From NCBI GenBank assembly GCA_043826565.1, contig JBDRPX010000025.1:36966-100965 (forward strand): a stretch of 64,000 nt of DNA, in the 5' to 3' direction. The position numbers were made by a program, and so were the translations under genes. Positions 46,115 to 55,663 of the stretch are shown here, in pieces. The stretch is from Candidatus Omnitrophota bacterium. Lineage in GTDB: Bacteria; Omnitrophota; Gorgyraeia; B26-G9. Positions within the stretch are counted from its first letter, which is position 1. Each line of letters starts with the position of its first letter. The notes beneath the pieces are model-generated. The model was not told the DNA's origin, ran no database searches, and was given only the letters and a program-made list of their open reading frames with translations.

Positions 46115-47542
46115 ATGAAAAAAAAAGTTGTTTGTTTTATTATGGCCGGCGGAGAGGGGATGAGATTATGGCCAATGAGCCGTTCGCATTTTCCCAAGCA
46201 ATTACATTCTTTATTGGGTGATAGTTCTCTGCTGCAGCAGTCGATTGCCAGACTTCTAAAAACCAGTTCTCCGAAAAACATTCTCATCGGAACCCGGGAA
46301 GATCTTAATTTTTCCGTAAGGCAGCAGTGGGCAGATATGAATCTGGGGACTGAGCCATGGCTGATTTTAGAGCCGGTAAGCCGGAATACCGCACCGGCGA
46401 TTGCCTTGGCTATTCTGGCAGCTCGTGAGCGTTTTGGCGAAGATGTGATCATGGCTACGTTTGCCGCGGACCATGTGATTAAAAATAAAAAACGTTTTGA
46501 CGAATTGCTTAAGGTAGGCGTAAAAATGGCTCAACAAGGGAATATTGTTACTTTTGGGATTGTTCCGACTTATCCGGAAACAGGATACGGTTATATTAAG
46601 GCCGGCAAGAAACTGGGCAAGGATGTATTTGACGTGGCTGAATTTAAGGAAAAGCCGACTTTGAAAATTGCGGAAAAATATTTAAAAAACAACAGCTATT
46701 TATGGAATAGCGGTATGTTTGTTTTTGATACAAGTATCGTAGCCAAAGCTTTGGAAAAGCTTTCACCTCAAGTATGGAAACCTGCAGAGCGGGTGTGGGA
46801 AAAAAGAAAATCTAAAAAAAGCAGTGTAGGTTTTGATGAAAAAGCATTTAGTAAATTCCCCAAAATATCCATTGACTATGCGGTTATGGAAAAAGCCCCC
46901 AAGTTGGCAGTGATTAAAGCTGATTTTAATTGGTGTGATGTGGGCTGCTGGCGGATGGTACATGAGATTTCGCCGAAGGATAAGAATGGGAATGTGTTTT
47001 CCGGCAATATATTTAGTGTAGATACCACCGATACTTTTGTAAAATCAGACAAGCGTTTTGTGGCTACAGTGGGGCTTAAAGGAGTTGTTATTATTGATAC
47101 GCCGGATGCTTTACTTATTTCTGAAAAGGGCCGCAGCCAGGATGTCAAAGCAATCGTTGAGGAATTAAATGCCCGTAAGTCATTGCTAACTAAATTTCAT
47201 ACCACGGTATATCGTCCTTGGGGCAATTATACAGTCCTTGAAGAAGGCCCGGGATATAAGATAAAAAGAGTAGTGGTAAATCCTAAGCAGCGATTATCGC
47301 TACAGAAGCACAACCACCGTAGTGAACATTGGGTGGTTATTTCCGGAAAAGCGCGGATCATAAGTGATGATAATTCAATTTTGCTAAAAGCGAATGAAAG
47401 TATTTTTATCCGAAAGAAAGGTAAACATAGGATTATTAATCCGTTTAAGAAAGAAGTAGTGATTATTGAGGTGCAGACCGGGGCTTTGATTAATGAAGAT
47501 GATATTGTCCGATTTGATGATATTTATGACCGGGTAGTCTAA
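46115..47542 (+). CDS. manC: Bifunctional mannose-1-phosphate guanylyltransferase / mannose-6-phosphate isomerase (type II PMI; ManC/CpsB)
   Basis: The N-terminal NTP-transferase domain is FIMAGGEGMRLWPMS. The C-terminal cupin is QKHNHRSEHWVVISGKA. The ATG at 46115 is preceded by AGAGGA; the track ORF begins at 46100. Confidence 0.8.
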   Translation: MKKKVVCFIMAGGEGMRLWPMSRSHFPKQLHSLLGDSSLLQQSIARLLKTSSPKNILIGTREDLNFSVRQQWADMNLGTEPWLILEPVSRNTAPAIALAILAARERFGEDVIMATFAADHVIKNKKRFDELLKVGVKMAQQGNIVTFGIVPTYPETGYGYIKAGKKLGKDVFDVAEFKEKPTLKIAEKYLKNNSYLWNSGMFVFDTSIVAKALEKLSPQVWKPAERVWEKRKSKKSSVGFDEKAFSKFPKISIDYAVMEKAPKLAVIKADFNWCDVGCWRMVHEISPKDKNGNVFSGNIFSVDTTDTFVKSDKRFVATVGLKGVVIIDTPDALLISEKGRSQDVKAIVEELNARKSLLTKFHTTVYRPWGNYTVLEEGPGYKIKRVVVNPKQRLSLQKHNHRSEHWVVISGKARIISDDNSILLKANESIFIRKKGKHRIINPFKKEVVIIEVQTGALINEDDIVRFDDIYDRVV

Positions 47543-47555
47543 AGGAGCCGTCGGA

Positions 47556-47585
47556 CTGGCAAAAAACAAATTAATAGGGTATAAT
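47556..47585 (+). promoter_or_regulatory. Candidate sigma70 promoter (CTGGCA-18-TATAAT) driving the structured RNA
   Basis: TATAAT at 47580-47585. The -35 element is only a 4/6 match. Confidence 0.35.
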
Positions 47586-47629
47586 TATACTAAGGACAAA
47601 GTATATAGTTTTAGCAGTTTTATCCTTTT

Positions 47630-47790
47630 ACGGACAAAGGCAAACCCTGTGTGAACAGGGGGCGTCCCAAAGGTGGCAAACGTTGTTTGTGCAACCGGGA
47701 CCCCGAAGAAAAGCAGCGCTATTATAAATATATTATTCGGGGCAAAGCCGCGGGTCTAAGGAATATCTTAGATAGCCGGGTTACCGAAAG
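47630..47790 (+). ncRNA. Candidate c-di-GMP-I (GEMM) riboswitch aptamer(s), possibly tandem or with an insertion
   Basis: GC-rich island in an AT-rich genome. GGCAAACC-CUGU-GUGA(GNRA)-ACAGGGGGCGUCC, then GGGGCAAAGCCGCGGGUCUAAGG...CUUAGAUAGCCGGGUUACCGAAAG. This mirrors the Vc2 GEMM blocks GGCAAACC..GAAA..GGGACGCAAAGCC..GGCCUAAACC..GGGGUUACCGA, as I recall the consensus. An intrinsic terminator follows, and a pilin gene lies downstream. Confidence 0.45.
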
Positions 47791-47801
47791 AAAAGGAACA
47801 T

Positions 47802-47845
47802 AAGCCACTTAAGCAGTTTCTAGAAAAGGTGGCTTATTTTTTTTT
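47802..47845 (+). terminator. Rho-independent terminator (expression platform of the structured RNA)
   Basis: AAGCCAC-(loop 20 nt)-GTGGCTT followed by ATTTTTTTTT. Confidence 0.75.
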
Positions 47846-48069
47846 AATGAAGCAATGCTTTATGATGTCTGGTGACATCATAAAGGGGATGGCTGAATTA
47901 ACCCGCCCGAAAGTCCGCCTTCAATAGGGCGAGATTTCGCTAGTATTGTGGCGAACATGGCGAGGTTTAATTCGTGCAGATTACTTAGCCTCATTACATT
48001 TGCTAAGTAATGCACTTATTAAAGAAAGGAGGTGAAAGCGCGTATTGTCTATTAAATCCTTGACAATAT

Positions 48070-48098
48070 GCTAAATATCTGATATATTTTAAACAATT
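48070..48098 (+). promoter_or_regulatory. Near-consensus sigma70 promoter for the pilin gene (TTGACA-17-TATATT)
   Basis: TTGACA at 48070-48075, a 17-nt spacer, and TATATT at 48093-48098. This is 45 nt upstream of the ATG. Confidence 0.5.
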
Positions 48099-48143
48099 GA
48101 AAAACTGTTTGTATTAAATGTTTGGAAGGGAGGTGACAGGGTA

Positions 48144-48545
48144 ATGTTTAATAAAAAAGGTTTTACGTTGGTTGAACTTTTGATGGTTGTTATCATCATC
48201 GGTATTTTAGTTACACTTGCAGTTCCGAACTACTACAGATCAATAGAAAGAGCAAAAGGTGGTAAAGCAAAAGCAGCTTTAGACGGTATTAGAAAAGCTG
48301 AATTGCAGTACAGAGCGTTTAATGATACTTATACAGGGACAATTGCTGATTTGGCGGAGTATGATTTGCCGCCGGAGATTGCTGCTGGGGCAGATTCAGA
48401 TTGGGCTTATACTATCCCGACATCAACATCAACAGCACTGGGTCTTACTGCCACAAGAAGTGCTGGTCCGCATGCTACAGAAGTAATTAGTATGGATCAG
48501 GATGGTGTATTGACTTCAACAATAGGTGATTGGGGCGTCAGATAA
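48144..48545 (+). CDS. Type IV pilin / pseudopilin (prepilin-type N-terminal cleavage/methylation domain)
   Basis: MFNKKGFTLVELLMVVIIIGILVTLAVPNY has the class III signal G|FTLVE with the Glu+5. The protein is 133 aa. Confidence 0.8.
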   Translation: MFNKKGFTLVELLMVVIIIGILVTLAVPNYYRSIERAKGGKAKAALDGIRKAELQYRAFNDTYTGTIADLAEYDLPPEIAAGADSDWAYTIPTSTSTALGLTATRSAGPHATEVISMDQDGVLTSTIGDWGVR

Positions 48546-48580
48546 CCCTGATGTAGTTTAGGAGAAATATATTAAAAATG

Positions 48581-48637
48581 TGCTATCGGTTTATTCTCGA
48601 AAAAGCTTTATGGGGAAAAGCCGATAGCATTTTTTTT
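48581..48637 (+). terminator. Rho-independent terminator after the pilin gene
   Basis: TGCTATCGG-(loop)-CCGATAGCA followed by TTTTTTTT. Confidence 0.75.
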
Positions 48638-48678
48638 ATTTTATAAATGTATTTTATATAAATCTTAAGGAGGAAGTG

Positions 48679-49761
48679 ATGCGGATAATAGGTATTGCTA
48701 ATCAAAAGGGGGGGTGCGGCAAGACGACTACCGCGATTAATTTTTCAGCATGTTTGGCTCAGCTAAAAAAGAATGTATTGCTTATTGATTTAGACCCGCA
48801 GGGGCATGCGACATTAGGCCTTAATATTAAGCATGATGATTTGGAGAAAAGTATGTATAATGTTTTAACTCCGGATGCTGCTGAAAAAGTTAGGCTTGAT
48901 GAAATAATAGTACCTATTTCCAAAAACCTTGATTTAGCGCCGGCGACAATACTTTTATCCGCAATTGAACAGGAGCTCTCCGGAAAACCGGAAAGAGAAG
49001 CAAAATTATATCAGGCTATTTCTTTGATGGTTATGAAAAAAACTTATGATTTTATTATTATTGATTGCCCTCCGAGTTTAGGGATACTTACTTTTAATGC
49101 TCTGCGCGCATCAGGGGAAGTTATTGCGCCGGTGGATACGGGTTTTTTCTCAATGCAGGGAATTAGTAAATTGCTTGAAATTACTAACCTTATTAGTTCT
49201 CGAGTGAAAACCAGTATTAAGGTGAATGCTTTAATTACCATGTTTGATAAACGGACAAAGTTTTCCCAGGAAGTAAAGGAAGAGATTCACAAATATTTTA
49301 GCGGAAATGTGTTTAATACTATTATTAATAATAACGTTCGTGTGCGGGAGGCTTCCAGTTATGGGATGCCGGTAATTTCTTATGACAAAAATTGCCGGGG
49401 AGCTGTTGATTACATGGCCTTGGCAAAAGAGGTGATTAAGCCGCCGGCAAGAAACTTAATTGAAAAAATTGTTTCGCAAGCGTTTGGTCCTAAAAAAATC
49501 GAACAGGGTGTATTGTTTACCTATAGTGCTCCGGGAGCTGCTCAGGTGGAAATTGCCGGAGATTTTAATGGATGGGTTGCTGCTTCTGAAAGTAAGCTCG
49601 AAAATGTAAATGACGGAGTTTGGGCTAAAGTATATAGGTTAAACCCGGGACGTTATCGCTATAAATTCGTAGTTGACGGGCAGTGGGTTGTTGACCCCAA
49701 TAATCCGAATATTGAAACCGACGAAGTCGGCAATAGTAACTCATTATTGGAAATTAAATAA
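48679..49761 (+). CDS. ParA/MinD-family deviant Walker-A ATPase fused to a C-terminal CBM48 (AMPK-beta-type glycogen-binding) domain
   Basis: GIANQKGGCGKTTTAINFSACLA is the KGGxGKT deviant Walker A with the signature Lys. The C-terminal ~90 aa VLFTYSAPGAAQVEIAGDFNGWV...GVWAKVYRLNPGRYRYKFVVDGQWVVDPNNP match the CBM48 consensus (GxFxxW...W...L.pGxYxYKFxVDGxWxxDP). The AAGGAGG RBS is 5 nt before the ATG at 48679. Confidence 0.75.
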   Translation: MRIIGIANQKGGCGKTTTAINFSACLAQLKKNVLLIDLDPQGHATLGLNIKHDDLEKSMYNVLTPDAAEKVRLDEIIVPISKNLDLAPATILLSAIEQELSGKPEREAKLYQAISLMVMKKTYDFIIIDCPPSLGILTFNALRASGEVIAPVDTGFFSMQGISKLLEITNLISSRVKTSIKVNALITMFDKRTKFSQEVKEEIHKYFSGNVFNTIINNNVRVREASSYGMPVISYDKNCRGAVDYMALAKEVIKPPARNLIEKIVSQAFGPKKIEQGVLFTYSAPGAAQVEIAGDFNGWVAASESKLENVNDGVWAKVYRLNPGRYRYKFVVDGQWVVDPNNPNIETDEVGNSNSLLEIK

Positions 49762-49962
49762 TTTAAAATATTCTTGACTATTTAGCTTGATTAGTAATAA
49801 TATAATAAAAGGATATAAAAAGTTTGCAATATAAAGACTTTTAAGTTTATTATAGAGTACAAGCTTTACTTTATAACTTTACAACTTTAAAACTTTCAAC
49901 TTAAATATATGTGCCCTCTGGGCAGGAATCCGTGAGCTGAATATGTTTGTAAGAAGACGTCG

Positions 49963-50880
49963 ATGAGTAATTCAAAAAAATTAGGTAAAGGCTTAGAAGA
50001 TATATCGTATTTGTTTCTTTCCCCAGCAGAAGAAGATTCTCTTTCTAAAGAAAGCTTTGGTCGGCAGGAGAAAAAAACCGCCTCTATTTTAGAAACTCCG
50101 ATTAAAAGTATTTGTCTGATCGGGAACAATTCCTCTTTTCTTGATGCTTTTCTGGTCATTAATTTATCATTAGCTTTAGCCCGTTTGGGTATGCGTATTG
50201 CGGTTGTTGATATGGAGCCGGAACTGCCTTGTTTGAATTTTTTTCTGGGAAATGAATTACAAAAAGGCACTGTGGATAATTCTGAAGGTTTGGTCCGGGA
50301 GGGGCCCTTAGGCGTTAAATTGGTCAGCCTGAATAAATTTACTTTTGAGCATCTTGCGAAAAATGAGAATAGTGACAGGATTATTGAACAGCTAAGTAAA
50401 ATAGAAGAGGATGTTGACCTGATTTTGGTAAATGTAATGCAAAAGAATTTATTTGCCGCAAAGAGTGCTTTAAATGACTTGGGAACGGAATTTTTAGTGA
50501 TCTCTGCACCGGATAAAAACAGAATTCTGGATTCCTATCGAATAATAAAAACAATCTTTCAGAGTAACCCTCTTTCTAAAGTTGGTTTGGTAGTTACTGA
50601 TGTTAACCATATGTATGAAATAGACGCGGTTTATAATAAAATGTTTGGTGCAGTTAAAAAATTTTTAGATAAGGAATTATATAAATGCGGGTTTTTGTTT
50701 AAAATCAGGCAGGATGTTGATTTTAAAGCAACGATAGCATCATTTTATGATGCGGATTTAACCGCATGTATTTCCAATATAGCTCAGATTGTTTTGTTGC
50801 GGTTAAATTTGGGCGGGGATGTTATAACTAAAGGCTCATTTTTTAAAAAAATGGTCAGCGGTTTTAGTTTGCCGAGGTGA
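49963..50880 (+). CDS. Walker-A-degenerate ParA/MinD-like protein with ParB-like N-terminal LGKGL peptide (candidate partner/adaptor)
   Basis: The N-terminus MSNSKKLGKGLEDISYLF resembles the ParB/Spo0J N-terminal ParA-stimulating motif (LGRGL/LGKGI). ICLIGNNSSFLDAFLVINLSLALARLGMRIAVVDME aligns with the MinD [34 protein letters not shown], but the P-loop lysines and glycines are lost. Confidence 0.55.
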   Translation: MSNSKKLGKGLEDISYLFLSPAEEDSLSKESFGRQEKKTASILETPIKSICLIGNNSSFLDAFLVINLSLALARLGMRIAVVDMEPELPCLNFFLGNELQKGTVDNSEGLVREGPLGVKLVSLNKFTFEHLAKNENSDRIIEQLSKIEEDVDLILVNVMQKNLFAAKSALNDLGTEFLVISAPDKNRILDSYRIIKTIFQSNPLSKVGLVVTDVNHMYEIDAVYNKMFGAVKKFLDKELYKCGFLFKIRQDVDFKATIASFYDADLTACISNIAQIVLLRLNLGGDVITKGSFFKKMVSGFSLPR

Positions 50881-51567
50881 GTGATGACAACTGTTTTTCG
50901 TAAAACAGTAATCGAAAAAGAAAAACTCAGAGAAATAATACTGAAAAATCCGGAATATATTCAGCCGGATCTCAGTTTTATAGATCTTAAACTGGGTACT
51001 GAAGACGAAGGAATTATTGATTTTTTAGGAGTTGATAAAACCGCTTGTTTGAATATAGTTAACTTTAGTACCGGAGAAAATGCGGATTTGCTGATTTCGG
51101 CTTTAAGTCAGGCGCATTGGCTGAGGAAAAATGAAACTTTGGTAAAAAGACTTTTCTTTAGTGAAAATGTCGATCTAACCCAGAGTCCGGTTATAATGCT
51201 CATTGGTTCTGATTTTTCGGAAAAGTCAAAATCCGCCGCAAAACAAATTAATGGGCATTTGATAAAATTTATTCAGTTCCAATATGTGATCTCTCAAGAC
51301 CAGGATGCAATATTCTTTGAGGAAGTTTTTTGCAATAAAAAGAATTTACAGCAGGAAATTGCTGTTGAGGTCAAGGAGAAAGAATCAATAACTCAGACAA
51401 CAGTATCTCTTAAGTCTTCAGTTATTAGAAAAGAGACATTGCCGGTACCGGAGGTATCTGCGGAAGCACCTCACCCCAGGATAGAAGAAATATTGCTTTC
51501 CCCGGAAGAAATCGCCGAGTTTATGGATTTCGACAGAGTCTTAGAACGCGAAAAATCCGCTGAATAA
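50881..51567 (+). CDS. Hypothetical protein with an acidic C-terminus, translationally coupled to the upstream pseudo-ParA gene
   Basis: The start codon abuts the upstream stop (TGA GTG ATG). There is no recognisable domain. The E/D-rich tail reads EEILLSPEEIAEFMDFDRVLEREKSAE. Confidence 0.45.
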   Translation: MMTTVFRKTVIEKEKLREIILKNPEYIQPDLSFIDLKLGTEDEGIIDFLGVDKTACLNIVNFSTGENADLLISALSQAHWLRKNETLVKRLFFSENVDLTQSPVIMLIGSDFSEKSKSAAKQINGHLIKFIQFQYVISQDQDAIFFEEVFCNKKNLQQEIAVEVKEKESITQTTVSLKSSVIRKETLPVPEVSAEAPHPRIEEILLSPEEIAEFMDFDRVLEREKSAE

Positions 51568-51610
51568 AATTAGAAAAACCTGCCATATTTGCTAAGAAAG
51601 AATATCGTTT

Positions 51611-52378
51611 ATGCCAACAAAAAATCCGATAGTATTTAGAAAAATATTTTCACAATATATTCTTTCTGATAAAGAGGCACCTTTTGTTTGTGCTTTTTCA
51701 ACCCGTGTCGATAATTTTAGTTTACTCGGGATAACTAATCGCAGCGAAAGAGAGCTGGTTATCCAGGCGCGCAGGAAATTTTTTACTGCCTTTGATGCTC
51801 AATTAGAAAAGGCTGTTTTCTTGGAGCAGCCGCATAGAGCAACTGTTTTTAAAGCTAACCGGCAAGACGAGGGGCGGGGGGCATTTGCTTGGGATGCCAG
51901 TGTTCCCGGAGCGGATGCAGTTATAACAGCTATTCCCGGTCTGGCTTTAGCAATATTAACAGCAGATTGTTTGCCGATTGTTATTGCTGACCCCCTTGAA
52001 AAGGCTGTAGGAATTATCCATGCGGGCTGGAGGGGTATTTACGCGGAAATAGCAAAAAACACAGTTTCCGAAATGTGCCGGGAGTTTAATTGCCGGTTAA
52101 AAAATCTTTACGCTTATATCGGTCCGGGAATAGGTAAGTGCTGCTATGAAGTTCAGGATGATGTGGCTGATAAATTCCCCGGTTTTATTCTTAGAAATGT
52201 AAATAGAGTGTGTTTGGATCTTAGCGGGGCAGTACTTAACCAGTTGTTTGATGCGGGGATAAAAGAAACAAATATTTATAATACAGCTTTTTGTACCTGT
52301 TGCAAAAGTGATGAGTTTTTTTCTTATCGCAGAGGTGACCGGCTAAAGCGTATGATTACCGGCGTAATGATAAAGTAG
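51611..52378 (+). CDS. pgeF: YfiH/PgeF-family (DUF152) purine-nucleoside phosphorylase / peptidoglycan editing factor
   Basis: ILTADCLPIV...GIIHAGWRG...CTCC are the characteristic Cys/His motifs of the YfiH family. Confidence 0.7.
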   Translation: MPTKNPIVFRKIFSQYILSDKEAPFVCAFSTRVDNFSLLGITNRSERELVIQARRKFFTAFDAQLEKAVFLEQPHRATVFKANRQDEGRGAFAWDASVPGADAVITAIPGLALAILTADCLPIVIADPLEKAVGIIHAGWRGIYAEIAKNTVSEMCREFNCRLKNLYAYIGPGIGKCCYEVQDDVADKFPGFILRNVNRVCLDLSGAVLNQLFDAGIKETNIYNTAFCTCCKSDEFFSYRRGDRLKRMITGVMIK

Positions 52379-52453
52379 CTAATAGCTGATCGGGTTAAGT
52401 TCGAAGTTGCAATATCCAAACTATAGCGCAACCAGTGTATTCTTGAGGCTTAT

Positions 52454-52474
52454 GACTTGAGACTTGAGACTTGT
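52454..52474. repeat. Heptanucleotide tandem repeat (GACTTGA) x3 in the intergenic region
   Basis: gacttga gacttga gacttgt. The unit is the reverse complement of the NCAAGTC units inside proS. Confidence 0.75.
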
Positions 52475-52592
52475 GGCTGTGATAATTCCCTTGACATTAA
52501 ATATCAAATAATATAATATTACAGTGCTAAAATGTTTTAAGCTATAATATTTATAGCTGTAAACTTTATGCTTTTAAAATAAGGAGGGGGTC

Positions 52593-53621
52593 ATGAAAGC
52601 AAAAAAAACTGTAAAAAAATCTGCGGGTTCTGCTAAAACGACACGAGTAAAATCAACGGTGAAAAAGACTAAAACGAAGGTAACTAAAGTTTCCCGGTCA
52701 AAAATGCCGACAGATTTTAAACCGTTTCTTGATGCGCCGATTGCCGATAATTTACCGGCACTTACTAAAGGTAAACAGCAGGTTGGTGAAAGTAAGTTTT
52801 TTATTAGTCCCAGTGCTGTTGCGGTTGAGGAAAGAGAAACTTATGATTTGCCGTCCGGTTATGCGGATACGCGCATTGTTATTCAGGTAAGAGATCCGTA
52901 TTGGCTTTACGCTTATTGGGAGGTAAACCCAAATAAGTGGGATGGATTGCGTCAGGAACTGGGCGAAGCTCTGGATAGTTCAAAGCGGGTATTGCGGATA
53001 TATGATATAACCGGCGTGCAATTTAACGGAAGTAATTCTAATGGATTTTTTGATATAGATATTAACGATTTTGCGGCTAATTGGTATATTAATATCGGTA
53101 CTCCGGGGCGTGGATATTGCGTTGATCTCGGATTGATATTAGCTGACGGCAGATTTATTACAATCGCCCGGTCAAATTGTGTGACTACTCCGCTGGATGG
53201 GCCAAGTAATTTAACTGATGAGGAGTGGATGATTGTTGAAGAAGACTTTAATAAACTCTATGGATTATCGGTAGGTTTAGGTGTGGGCCTTAGCTCTGCG
53301 GATATAAGAGAACAGATCAGTGAACGGCTTAAAAAAGAAATATCCTCAGGGGCTGTATCCTCATTCGGCAGTCCGGTGAAAAAGGCCGCAAAGCGCGGTT
53401 TTTGGATGGTGGTAAATACCGAACTGATTGTTTACGGAGCTACTGAGCCTGATGCAGCTGTTACTGTGCAGGGCCGGCCGATTAAATTAAAAAAAGACGG
53501 TACGTTTAGTCTGCGTTTTGCTTTGCCGGACGGAGAACAGGTTATCCCGGTTAAGGGTGTTTCTGCGGACAAAGTTGAAGAGAGAGTTATTACGCCGATT
53601 GTAACAAGGAGAACGGTTTAG
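52593..53621 (+). CDS. DUF4912-like protein with a Lys/Thr-rich N-terminus (family frequently encoded next to GH57 alpha-glucan enzymes)
   Basis: RDPYWLYAYWEV is the motif I associate with DUF4912. The N-terminal low-complexity region is K/T-rich. This is a recalled family resemblance, not a search result. Confidence 0.4.
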   Translation: MKAKKTVKKSAGSAKTTRVKSTVKKTKTKVTKVSRSKMPTDFKPFLDAPIADNLPALTKGKQQVGESKFFISPSAVAVEERETYDLPSGYADTRIVIQVRDPYWLYAYWEVNPNKWDGLRQELGEALDSSKRVLRIYDITGVQFNGSNSNGFFDIDINDFAANWYINIGTPGRGYCVDLGLILADGRFITIARSNCVTTPLDGPSNLTDEEWMIVEEDFNKLYGLSVGLGVGLSSADIREQISERLKKEISSGAVSSFGSPVKKAAKRGFWMVVNTELIVYGATEPDAAVTVQGRPIKLKKDGTFSLRFALPDGEQVIPVKGVSADKVEERVITPIVTRRTV

Positions 53622-54082: not shown

Positions 54083-55663
54083 ATGGAAAAAGGATATCTT
54101 TGTATGGTTTTACACGGTCATTTACCATATGTCCGTCATCCTGAGCATGAGGATTTTCTAGAGGAAGATTGGCTGTATGAGGCAATTACCGAAACATATA
54201 TTCCGTTATTAAATGTTTTTGAAGGGCTGATTAAAGATAAAATTGATTTTCGGGTAACCCTGGGTTTGTCGCCGACTTTAATTACCATGCTTCTTGATCC
54301 ATTGCTCCAGGAGAGGTACCTGAAGCATTTGGATAGCCTGATTGAACTGGCTAGCCGGGAAGTTGAGAGGACCCGGTGGCAGCCGGAGTTCCATAAGCTT
54401 GCCTTGATGTATCTAAGTAAATTCAATTTGGCTCGATATATATTTGTAGATAAGCATAACCGGAATTTAATCCAGGCATTTAGGGCAGTTCAGGATGCCG
54501 GGAAACTTGAAATAATTACCTGCGGGGCAACTCACGGTTTTTTCCCTCTGATGCATGTTTGTAAGGAGTCTATTCGGGCTCAGGTGAAAACGGCAGTCGA
54601 TCAGTATAAACGTGTTTTCGGCCGCCAGCCTCGGGGAATATGGCTTCCCGAGTGCGGCTATAATCCGGGAGATGATGAAATATTAAAGGAAAACGGTCTG
54701 CGTTTCTTTTTTGTCGATGCTCACGGTATATTGCATGGAACACCTCGTCCTAAGTACGGTGTTTTTGCTCCGGCATATTGTAAGTCCGGGGTAGCTTGCT
54801 TTGGCCGTGATCTGGAATCTTCAAAACAGGTATGGAGTGCGGTAGAAGGTTATCCCGGGGATTATTCCTATAGAGAATTTTACCGGGATATCGGTTTTGA
54901 TCTTGATTTTGACTATGTCAAACCGTACATCCATAAAGATGGGATTCGTATTAATACCGGTATTAAATATTACAAAATTACCGGGGAATCGCAGGAAAAG
55001 CATCCATATGTGCCGGAAGACGCGCTGCAGAAATCTGCGGATCAGGCAGGCAATTTCATGTTTAACCGCCAGAAGCAGATTGAGTATTTGTATGATATGC
55101 TTAAACGCGAGCCGATCATAATTTCTCCTTATGATGCGGAACTGTTCGGCCATTGGTGGTATGAAGGTCCGGATTGGCTGGATTTCCTGTTTCGTAAAGT
55201 TGCTTGTGACCAGAAAACATTTAAGATGATAACTCCTTCGGAATATTTGGAAAAATTCCCGCGTAATCAGGTTATAACACCGTCGATGTCTACCTGGGGC
55301 TATAAAGGGTATAATGAGGTTTGGCTCGAAGGCTCCAATGACTGGATTTACCGGCATTTGCATAAGGCTTCTGAACGCATGACTGAACTGGTGAGAATGT
55401 GTCCGGATGCCGGTGGAATAAAACTCAGAGCATTAAACCAGGCTTTAAGAGAATTATTATTAGCTCAGAGTTCTGATTGGGCATTTATAATGAAGACCGG
55501 GACACATGTTTCCTATGCCGTAAAAAGAACCAAGGATCATTTGTTGAGATTTTCAAAATTGTATTTCAGTATAAAAGCAGACAATGTGAATGAATCCTGG
55601 CTTACTGATATTGAGTATAAAGACAAGATATTCCCGAATATTGATTATCGGTTTCACTCATGA
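54083..55663 (+). CDS. Glycoside hydrolase family 57 enzyme (GH57 1,4-alpha-glucan branching enzyme / amylopullulanase-like)
   Basis: The N-terminus CMVLHGHLPYVRHPEHEDFLEEDWLYEAITETYIPLL is the GH57 signature HxHLP...E. The protein is ~526 aa, typical of GH57 branching enzymes. Confidence 0.8.
   Translation: MEKGYLCMVLHGHLPYVRHPEHEDFLEEDWLYEAITETYIPLLNVFEGLIKDKIDFRVTLGLSPTLITMLLDPLLQERYLKHLDSLIELASREVERTRWQPEFHKLALMYLSKFNLARYIFVDKHNRNLIQAFRAVQDAGKLEIITCGATHGFFPLMHVCKESIRAQVKTAVDQYKRVFGRQPRGIWLPECGYNPGDDEILKENGLRFFFVDAHGILHGTPRPKYGVFAPAYCKSGVACFGRDLESSKQVWSAVEGYPGDYSYREFYRDIGFDLDFDYVKPYIHKDGIRINTGIKYYKITGESQEKHPYVPEDALQKSADQAGNFMFNRQKQIEYLYDMLKREPIIISPYDAELFGHWWYEGPDWLDFLFRKVACDQKTFKMITPSEYLEKFPRNQVITPSMSTWGYKGYNEVWLEGSNDWIYRHLHKASERMTELVRMCPDAGGIKLRALNQALRELLLAQSSDWAFIMKTGTHVSYAVKRTKDHLLRFSKLYFSIKADNVNESWLTDIEYKDKIFPNIDYRFHS

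Follow-up and report, generated by a model that had tools for sequence, protein, structure and literature searches.

A ParA-CBM48 fusion and its partner genes in Candidatus Omnitrophota: a candidate system for tethering or positioning alpha-glucan granules

Three adjacent genes, here called A, B and C, are described from a stretch of 64,000 nucleotides (nt), "the window", of a Candidatus Omnitrophota metagenome-assembled genome. Gene A encodes a ParA ATPase fused to a CBM48 glycogen-binding module, gene B a FlhG/FleN-fold pseudo-ATPase with a ParB-like N-terminal peptide, and gene C a protein with a NucS-like PD-(D/E)XK fold. Judged from their sequences, A-B-C may be an ATP-switched tether or positioning system that links alpha-glucan (glycogen) granules to the nucleoid, a reading to which we give an even chance. 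The set was conserved in at least six bacterial phyla. The module appears undescribed, and no description of a glycogen-binding ParA was found in the literature. Database copies of A, B and C (P0001, P0121 and P0186) were 100% identical to the proteins of the window and were labelled only "AAA family ATPase" or "hypothetical protein". The features of the module are as follows (aa, amino acids; pLDDT, predicted local distance difference test).

48679..49761, + strand: gene A, ParA-CBM48 fusion, 360 aa from ATG 48679 (P0001)
48679..49440, + strand: Soj-type ParA ATPase domain of A, aa 2-255, from structure relatives and residue conservation
48700-48726, + strand: deviant Walker A of A, NQKGGCGKT
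49441..49512, + strand: linker between ATPase and CBM48 of A, aa 256-279, of widely variable length in the family alignment
49513..49758, + strand: CBM48 (AMPK-beta-type) glycogen-binding module of A, aa 280-361, from Pfam and residue conservation
49762..49962, + strand: spacer between A and B, 201 nt
49774-49801, + strand: promoter-like site TTGACT-16-AATAAT in the spacer, a consensus match only
49963..50880, + strand: gene B, FlhG/FleN-fold pseudo-ATPase with ParB-like N-terminal peptide, 305 aa
49975..50022, + strand: ParB-like putative ParA-binding peptide of B, KKLGKGLEDISYLFLS, aa 5-20
50023-50097, + strand: disordered linker of B, aa 21-45
50098..50832, + strand: FlhG-like alpha/beta domain of B, aa 46-290
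50833..50877, + strand: conserved amphipathic C-terminal tail of B, GSFFKKMVSGF
50884..51567, + strand: gene C, 227 aa from ATG 50884, translationally coupled to B
50884..51336, + strand: NucS-like PD-(D/E)XK-fold domain of C, aa 1-152 (pLDDT above 90)
51337..51495, + strand: variable linker of C, aa 153-205, with residues 157-195 predicted to be disordered (pLDDT below 50)
51496..51534, + strand: near-invariant acidic helix of C, LSPEEIAEFMDFD, proposed docking peptide for B

ATPase and glycogen-binding module of gene A

The open reading frame (ORF) of A was listed from GTG 48676 (361 aa), and residues are numbered in that frame. A ribosome-binding site (AAGGAGG, 48667-48673) and the 360-aa database entry favour ATG 48679 as the start. 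Residues 2-182 matched Pfam AAA_31 (7e-53, 179.6 bits against a cutoff of 27). Of the solved relatives of the ATPase domain, the best was the chromosomal ParA of Myxococcus xanthus (8RAY, 2e-56); further relatives were Soj of Thermus thermophilus (2.5e-43) and of Helicobacter pylori (2.5e-40), and the carboxysome-positioning ATPase McdA was far more distant (3e-9). Against NCBIfam ParA_partition, A scored 104 bits, under the cutoff of 180.

Residue conservation was tabulated over an alignment of 32 family members with 45-73% identity. The catalytic residues K11 and K16 (signature and Walker A), D38 and D40 (Walker A') and D130 (Walker B) were invariant (32/32). A preliminary description of this DNA had called A a genuine deviant-Walker-A ParA; the motif NQKGGCGKTTT was indeed present, with both lysines kept throughout the family. 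The Walker A cysteine, C14 (KGGCGKT), was also invariant and is a family signature.

In M. xanthus ParA, R238 binds non-specific DNA, and the pocket for the ParB peptide has been defined (PMC12462528). R222 of A, the equivalent of R238, was Arg or Lys in 31 of the 32 sequences. Most of the pocket was likewise kept (Y61, 31/32; E100, 28/32; L135, 28/32; F140, 29/32), and positions I137 and L172 remained hydrophobic. Two pocket changes set the family apart from chromosomal ParABS (Soj/ParA with Spo0J/ParB): Q99, the equivalent of M. xanthus V116, was an invariant Gln, and the position of L93, equivalent to D110, was hydrophobic in 30/32. As predicted from these residues, A is a live (catalytically intact) Soj-like ATPase that keeps a ParB-type docking site.

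The tail of A (aa 280-361) matched AMPK1_CBM (PF16561, 2.9e-15, 56.6 bits against a cutoff of 26.8) and CBM_48 (PF02922, 8.5e-8, 32.9 bits against 22.4). The best solved relative of its last 80 residues was the carbohydrate-binding module (CBM) of AMPK beta-2 (1.7e-10). The glucan-contact residues of AMPK beta, which we take to be W100, K126, W133 and N150, correspond to W300 (32/32), K330 (30/32), W337 (32/32) and N355 (31/32) in the alignment of A. This pattern indicates that the CBM48 is under purifying selection, on a linker of variable length. The C-terminus had been described as a CBM48, and the curated profiles, the likeness to a solved AMPK-beta CBM and the retained contact residues all point the same way. 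The module is the one found in AMPK beta and in branching and debranching enzymes, with the same Trp/Lys/Trp/Asn contacts, but here it sits on a ParA ATPase and not on a kinase scaffold or a glycoside hydrolase.

The fusion itself is genuine. Of the 120 best database matches, which reached down to 44% identity and came from numerous contigs and sources, 119 had both domains. The sole remaining match was a truncated protein on a 1.7 kb contig. An assembly chimera was ruled out by the recurrence of the fusion across many independent contigs and sources.

Partner proteins B and C

B starts 201 nt past the stop of A, in line with the spacing of about 200 bp first reported. Loci of relatives are labelled L001 onwards; the A-B spacing was 23 nt in L005, and the stop-to-stop ORFs abut in L006. 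Sequence profiles gave weak matches only for B (CbiA, 2.7e-4; archaeal MinD, 7.5e-7). An AlphaFold model built with 62 homologues was confident over residues 46-305 (mean pLDDT 78, predicted template modelling score 0.76), with residues 1-44 disordered, and showed a MinD-like fold. The only plasmid matches of B were FleN and a MinD/ParA gene adjacent to FlhF.

None of the 62 B family members had a GK[ST] P-loop. The P-loop Lys position was occupied by D, R or N and the Walker B Asp position by S, T or N; the signature Lys was missing in every member as well. The same state was found in Omnitrophota and in the Thermodesulfobacteriota relatives, the latter at ~28% identity. Because no member has a P-loop, the pseudo-ATPase state is ancestral, and recent decay was ruled out on the same count (0/62, including relatives from other phyla at 25-30% identity). 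The earlier assignment of B to the MinD/ParA fold with a dead P-loop stood, but its assignment as a ParA paralogue did not: B belongs to an ancient FlhG/FleN-like family of which all members are dead.

Residues 5-20 of B, KKLG(K/R)GLED(I/F)S(Y/H)LFLS, were near-invariant across the 62 proteins and across phyla, and the rest of the protein falls to 25-30% identity. Mutagenesis of ParB has shown that L11, R13, L15 and L18 serve ParA binding and ATPase stimulation (PMC12462528). The arrangement L7-x-K/R9-x-L11-x-x-I/F14 of B reproduces their spacing. The N-terminus had been likened to that of ParB, and the match of L-x-(K/R)-x-L-x-x-hydrophobic to an experimentally defined motif supports it as a putative ParA-binding peptide. 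In a regular-expression scan of all loci, the peptide was found only in B, in fusions of the peptide to the C domain and in DUF4912 proteins, both described below. The system thus resembles ParABS in its Soj-type deviant Walker A ATPase, in the conserved DNA-binding arginine position and in a pocket suited to an amphipathic LG(R/K)GL peptide, which is N-terminal and sits on a disordered tail of the partner. It differs in that the partner has no ParB, CTPase or helix-turn-helix domain, no parS-like repeats beyond short chance-level ones were found in 47500-52600, and the ATPase carries a CBM48.

B also shares its layout with FlhG/FleN, in which a flexible N-terminal enhancer helix activates a partner NTPase, followed by a MinD-like domain and a C-terminal amphipathic helix (PMC12826062). 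Unlike FlhG, no member of the B family has the P-loop Lys, signature Lys or Walker B Asp, and there is no flagellar context. The DQAxxLR enhancer helix of FlhG was not found in B, which has KKLG(K/R)GLEDIS in its place. The C-terminal tail (FFKKxxxxF or FSFxExLF) is conserved and amphipathic and resembles the membrane-targeting helices of MinD and FlhG; by this analogy, membrane association of B is a possibility.

The stop codon of B (TGA, 50878-50880) overlaps the Shine-Dalgarno sequence AGGTGA of the C start codon at 50884. In L005, B and C overlap by 4 nt. C matched no Pfam family. Its model had a confident domain (1-152, pLDDT above 90) with a restriction-endonuclease-like fold, a disordered stretch (157-195) and a terminal helix (208-226). 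A profile alignment paired GIVD...VLELK of the C-terminal nuclease domain of NucS/EndoMS with GIID...IVNFD, a weak match. Only NucS residues 130-188 were covered, inside the C-terminal half; the N-terminal DNA-binding and dimerisation domain of NucS is absent, and C has a ParA partner. D47 of the catalytic site was kept, but E174-x-K176 of NucS was replaced by N-x-S in the window and by N-F-D in the family consensus. In the fused peptide-C family the site reads D-x-D/E with no Lys. With E-x-K lost and no catalytic Lys left, the PD-(D/E)XK domain of C is likely to be inactive.

The C domain is mildly acidic (family median net charge -3.5), and DNA binding by C is therefore not favoured. A role for C as a DNA-binding protein in its own right likewise gets no support from charge (median about -3) and is the less likely reading. 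The last ~28 residues are acidic too (median net charge -6 across the family) and include the near-invariant helix L(T/S)PEEIAEFMDFD. NucS has a short C-terminal clamp-binding tail, and by analogy the helix may be a short docking peptide. FlhG reportedly binds an EIDAL peptide of FliM/FliY that resembles EEIAEF of C, which we take as a lead only.

These features bear on two explanations that involve no glycogen cargo. A could be a chromosomal ParA, with B-C or a peptide-C fusion replacing ParB in chromosome segregation; the closest solved relative of A, the ParB-like partner peptide and the DNA-enzyme fold of C fit this. We consider it very improbable, however. B and C have no ParB domain. The 64-kb window contained no GERRxRA motif, canonical ParB or second ParA, and a search for parS-like repeats or arrays in 47500-52600 returned only short chance-level repeats. 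In addition, the locus lies among polysaccharide and housekeeping genes, C is acidic and has no catalytic Lys, and A has invariant signatures of its own (KGGCGKT, Q99), suggesting a separate paralogue.

A nuclease-fold protein beside a ParA-like ATPase could also point to a defence or mobile-element module. C weakly matches the candidate families PDC-S18 and PDC-S11 (~26 bits), and one locus, L069, lies near phage-like genes. This explanation is extremely improbable all the same, since a search of 2.9 million viral contigs gave no relative of either B or the fused protein, and one of 72,556 plasmids no true homologue of the two. The same plasmids held no ParA-linked CBM48. No PHROG matches were obtained. 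PADLOC gave fold-level matches only for C, at ~26 bits, none for B and no defined-system match. Finally, C has no catalytic Lys, and the chromosomal context is stable across Omnitrophota.

Distribution and link to alpha-glucan metabolism

Profiles were scanned against one genome per species, and the loci found were annotated with custom hidden Markov models. The architectures were as follows.

A (ParA-CBM48), B and C in order: Omnitrophota L005-L011 (L012 is too short to show A)
A (ParA-CBM48), B and C in order: Thermodesulfobacteriota L001-L004, L013, L014 and L017-L020 (L023 and L034 partial)
A (ParA-CBM48), B and C in order: Zixibacteria L015 and L016; also L038, L069 and L071
A and B, no C detected: Latescibacterota L021, Schekmanbacteria L072
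ParA without CBM48, then B and C: Nitrospirota L024 and L025
ParA-CBM48 with no B or C adjacent: L070

C of the window is homologous to the 188-aa third gene of the Thermodesulfobacteriota loci (E=2e-11). A second form of the partner was found in Acidobacteriota L068, where ParA-CBM48 is followed by a 200-aa protein consisting of the peptide (RTLGRGLEDISHLFLSQ), a linker and a C-type domain, without the FlhG-like module and without the terminal helix. At E<=1e-3 an exhaustive profile search with the C family returned 799 representative clusters, of which 272 reached E<=1e-10; generic NucS-like proteins make up part of them. Among 178 C-family proteins, 39 had the peptide only, 51 the EEIxEF helix only and none had both. 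A metagenome scan yielded 291 loci encoding a fused peptide-C protein. Annotation covered 81 two-gene loci, with L073 counted in; ParA-CBM48 lay immediately upstream of the fused gene in 79, one had no upstream sequence, and one was an exception.

The either/or pattern, together with translational coupling, indicates that B and C act as one unit, that the C helix is likely a tether to B, and that peptide and C domain together form the partner's functional core. B is dispensable, because peptide-C fusions exist. An acidic tail and translational coupling had been reported for the third ORF and were both found again. This ORF is more than an accessory: the PD-(D/E)XK domain is the constant partner module.

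Several side observations concern single loci. L135, a 5.8 kb contig, carries two inverted copies of ParA-CBM48 with peptide-C and is probably an assembly palindrome. In L070, ParA-CBM48 is followed by two small genes with hydrophobic N-termini, one product being rich in charged residues and the other giving faint HEAT-repeat matches. A MerR-family regulator lies directly upstream of A-B-C in L024. A 62-aa ribbon-helix-helix (RHH_3) gene precedes ParA-CBM48 in L002 (3069-3257), with equivalents in L001, L003 and L004 (Thermodesulfobacteriota); it recalls the ParG/CopG-type regulators of type Ib partition operons.

Downstream of C, the window contains the following genes.

51611..52378, + strand: PgeF/YfiH-family gene
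52593..53621, + strand: DUF4912 protein (9.7e-39) with a Lys-rich N-terminus and a weak Glucodextran_B-like C-terminus
54083..55663, + strand: GH57 alpha-glucan branching-enzyme-like gene (GH57 and BE_C)

The GH57 and DUF4912-like genes had been placed downstream of the module before, and both were confirmed there. All seven Omnitrophota loci with enough flank had the order A-B-C-PgeF-DUF4912-GH57, with GH57 within 10 kb. The PgeF/YfiH gene stood between C and DUF4912 in these seven and not in other phyla, and its membership in the system is doubtful. In Thermodesulfobacteriota loci, a stand-alone CBM48 protein, GH57, DUF4912 (overlapping GH57) and a GT4/GT5 glycosyltransferase follow C in convergent orientation. 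The stand-alone CBM48 proteins are 101-141 aa long (L002:6402-6707, - strand, and equivalents). GH57 directly follows C in Zixibacteria L016 and in L071, and it also lies within 10 kb in several Thermodesulfobacteriota loci. As the gene arrangements differ between lineages, selection on linkage is the better explanation than inheritance of one layout.

The DUF4912 proteins of L006 (12571-14478), L007 (12565-14127) and L009 (4164-5888) carry the peptide, e.g. RKLGKGLEDISHLFLSS. It lies inside N-terminal extensions of ~240-300 aa that are rich in Lys, Ala and Val and resemble histone H1 tails. The DUF4912 protein of the window has a short Lys-rich N-terminus without the peptide. No description of DUF4912 function was found in the literature.

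These linkages would also suit a system that places or concentrates the GH57 branching enzyme, DUF4912 and the GT4/5 synthase on the nucleoid or on growing granules, and so controls the site of glycogen synthesis and not inheritance. DUF4912 is translationally linked to GH57 in Thermodesulfobacteriota, three Omnitrophota loci have the peptide on DUF4912, and GH57 is directly downstream of C in L016 and L071. We regard such enzyme organisation as quite unlikely, given that DUF4912 of the window has no peptide, that most two-gene loci have none of these enzymes nearby, and that a CBM48 binds the polymer and not the enzymes.

In the window, all ORFs judged real (1-64000) are on the + strand, and GC skew is positive throughout (0.14-0.31). 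The module is flanked by a surface-polysaccharide cluster on one side and by the housekeeping genes uppS, cdsA, dxr, rseP, ispG and proS on the other; from these surroundings, the site is an ordinary chromosomal one. ORFs sampled from the polysaccharide cluster (~35-47 kb) included GT1 and GT2 glycosyltransferases, a B12-radical SAM enzyme, methyltransferases, DUF3108, an RmlA-like gene and ManC. Upstream of the module, a cyclic di-GMP-I riboswitch (RF01051) was detected at 47629-47788 on the + strand (41.4 bits against a gathering score of 35). Next come a terminator-like hairpin (47792-47845) and, at 48144-48545, a type IV pilin-like gene that has an N_methyl motif. L005 likewise has a pilin-like gene, weakly matching N_methyl, ahead of gene A. 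After the pilin gene of the window, a 33-nt inverted repeat ending in a T-run (48571-48639) is terminator-like and would leave gene A at the head of a separate transcription unit.

Proposed function and significance

From the observed domain identities, residue conservation, synteny and alternative architectures, we infer the following binding events, ATPase stimulation and cellular outcome. A-B-C would be a dedicated storage-polysaccharide machine, in which a ParA joins DNA binding and CBM48 cargo binding (an ATP-gated DNA-glycogen cross-linker). It would be reset by a ParB-mimicking peptide on a NucS-like pseudo-nuclease, with an FlhG-derived pseudo-ATPase as an optional bridge. In this full form we put the chance of the proposal a little short of even. 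With its intact catalytic residues and conserved R/K222, A would form an ATP-dependent sandwich dimer that binds chromosomal DNA non-specifically. The CBM48 on the flexible linker of each subunit would grip alpha-1,4/1,6-glucan through its invariant ligand-contact residues, so that an ATP-bound dimer with its two CBM48s would bridge DNA and granule. The partner peptide, LG(K/R)GLEDIS(H/Y)LF, would dock in the conserved pocket located at the ParA dimer's edge, which would lead to ATP hydrolysis and release of A from DNA.

In the split partner of the window, B would serve as a dead FlhG-like scaffold that carries the peptide and probably holds C by its C-terminal EEIAEF helix. Many other genomes have the peptide joined straight to the C domain, and in some species the DUF4912 peptide may also trigger hydrolysis and release. 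Through repeated binding and release, granules would come to be distributed over the nucleoid, and each daughter cell would receive some of them. Mis-regulated glycogen in E. coli csrA mutants gathers at old poles, keeps the chromosome out and brings the lineage to an end (PMC4836754). The proposed spreading would avoid such polar accumulation and chromosome exclusion.

The McdAB carboxysome-positioning system, ParC/ParP, PpfA/TlpT and PomXYZ likewise combine a ParA-family ATPase with a small partner whose disordered N-terminus is activating. These ParA/MinD cargo systems spread a cytoplasmic body that is not DNA across the nucleoid, as proposed here. In those systems, however, the adaptor binds the cargo, whereas here the ATPase carries the presumed cargo-binding module. 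McdA is also only a distant relative of A, at 3e-9 against 2e-56 for chromosomal ParA. Polyhydroxybutyrate granules, which the preliminary description had listed as a ParA cargo, are to our knowledge not an established one.

Several points weigh against a tether between granules and nucleoid. Classic ParA systems have their activator on the cargo, but here it is the motor that bears the presumed cargo-binding module; it is not obvious that a Brownian-ratchet gradient would form, and the system may be a dynamic tether instead of a motor. The model does not account for the constant C domain, which is mildly acidic, so that DNA binding is not favoured. The ParA-CBM48 of L070 (10001-11086, 50% identical to A) has no neighbouring B or C. 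The A of the Nitrospirota A-B-C loci (L024:9084-11514, L025:9102-11514) has no CBM48, and no glycogen genes were found within 10 kb of these modules. No homologues of GH57, DUF4912 or PgeF were detected within 8 kb of the 81 two-gene loci. Three long two-gene flanks annotated with Pfam held nothing recurrent and were unrelated apart from a separate CBM48 ORF in L116, and Pfam-annotated flanks gave no recurrent cargo clue beside either the Nitrospirota variant or the two-gene loci. The ORF in L116 (170-1300) lies ~5.5 kb upstream of the module, and its 376-aa product has the CBM48 at the C-terminus. The expected association of the fusion with glucan genes was seen in part: the fusion and its linkage to GH57/DUF4912 recur in several phyla, but the two-gene form shows no nearby glycogen genes.

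Some of these points would be accounted for if glycogen were a signal or a sink. As in AMPK, the CBM48 would then report on stored glucan, or sequester A to it, and tune a ParA process whose cargo is the ligand of the C domain (a protein assembly, a chromosomal site or the division machinery, for instance). The Nitrospirota core without CBM48, the C domain and not the CBM as the constant partner module, the two-gene loci without nearby glycogen genes and a Soj-like A with an intact ParB-type pocket all speak for this. Yet the GH57/DUF4912 linkage recurs in differing arrangements, and the GH57-linked DUF4912 protein also bears the peptide. No alternative cargo gene recurs in the Pfam-annotated flanks, and no repeat arrays lie near the operon. 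We hold a signal or sink role to be unlikely, though worth weighing. The granule positioning first proposed for this locus stands as a candidate, with curated CBM48 profile matches in A, the fusion present in relatives and a MinD/ParA fold in the partner B.

ParA/MinD ATPases are a general bacterial solution for placement, used for chromosomes, plasmids, carboxysomes, chemoreceptor arrays and division sites. Storage polysaccharide is so far not among their known cargos, and the placement and inheritance of glycogen in bacteria are poorly understood. If the proposal is true, glycogen would join the list, and ParA would have a second way to organise the cytoplasm, distinct from the ratchet with a cargo-borne activator. 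Spreading granules on the nucleoid would solve a real problem, as the polar glycogen of E. coli illustrates (PMC4836754). The module is also a natural experiment in ParA specificity, with a ParB-type peptide and pocket re-used outside ParABS, two dead enzymes recruited as scaffolds, and split and fused partner forms that are interchangeable. Under its uninformative annotations, it occurs widely among uncultivated phyla and, it appears, in soil metagenomes too.

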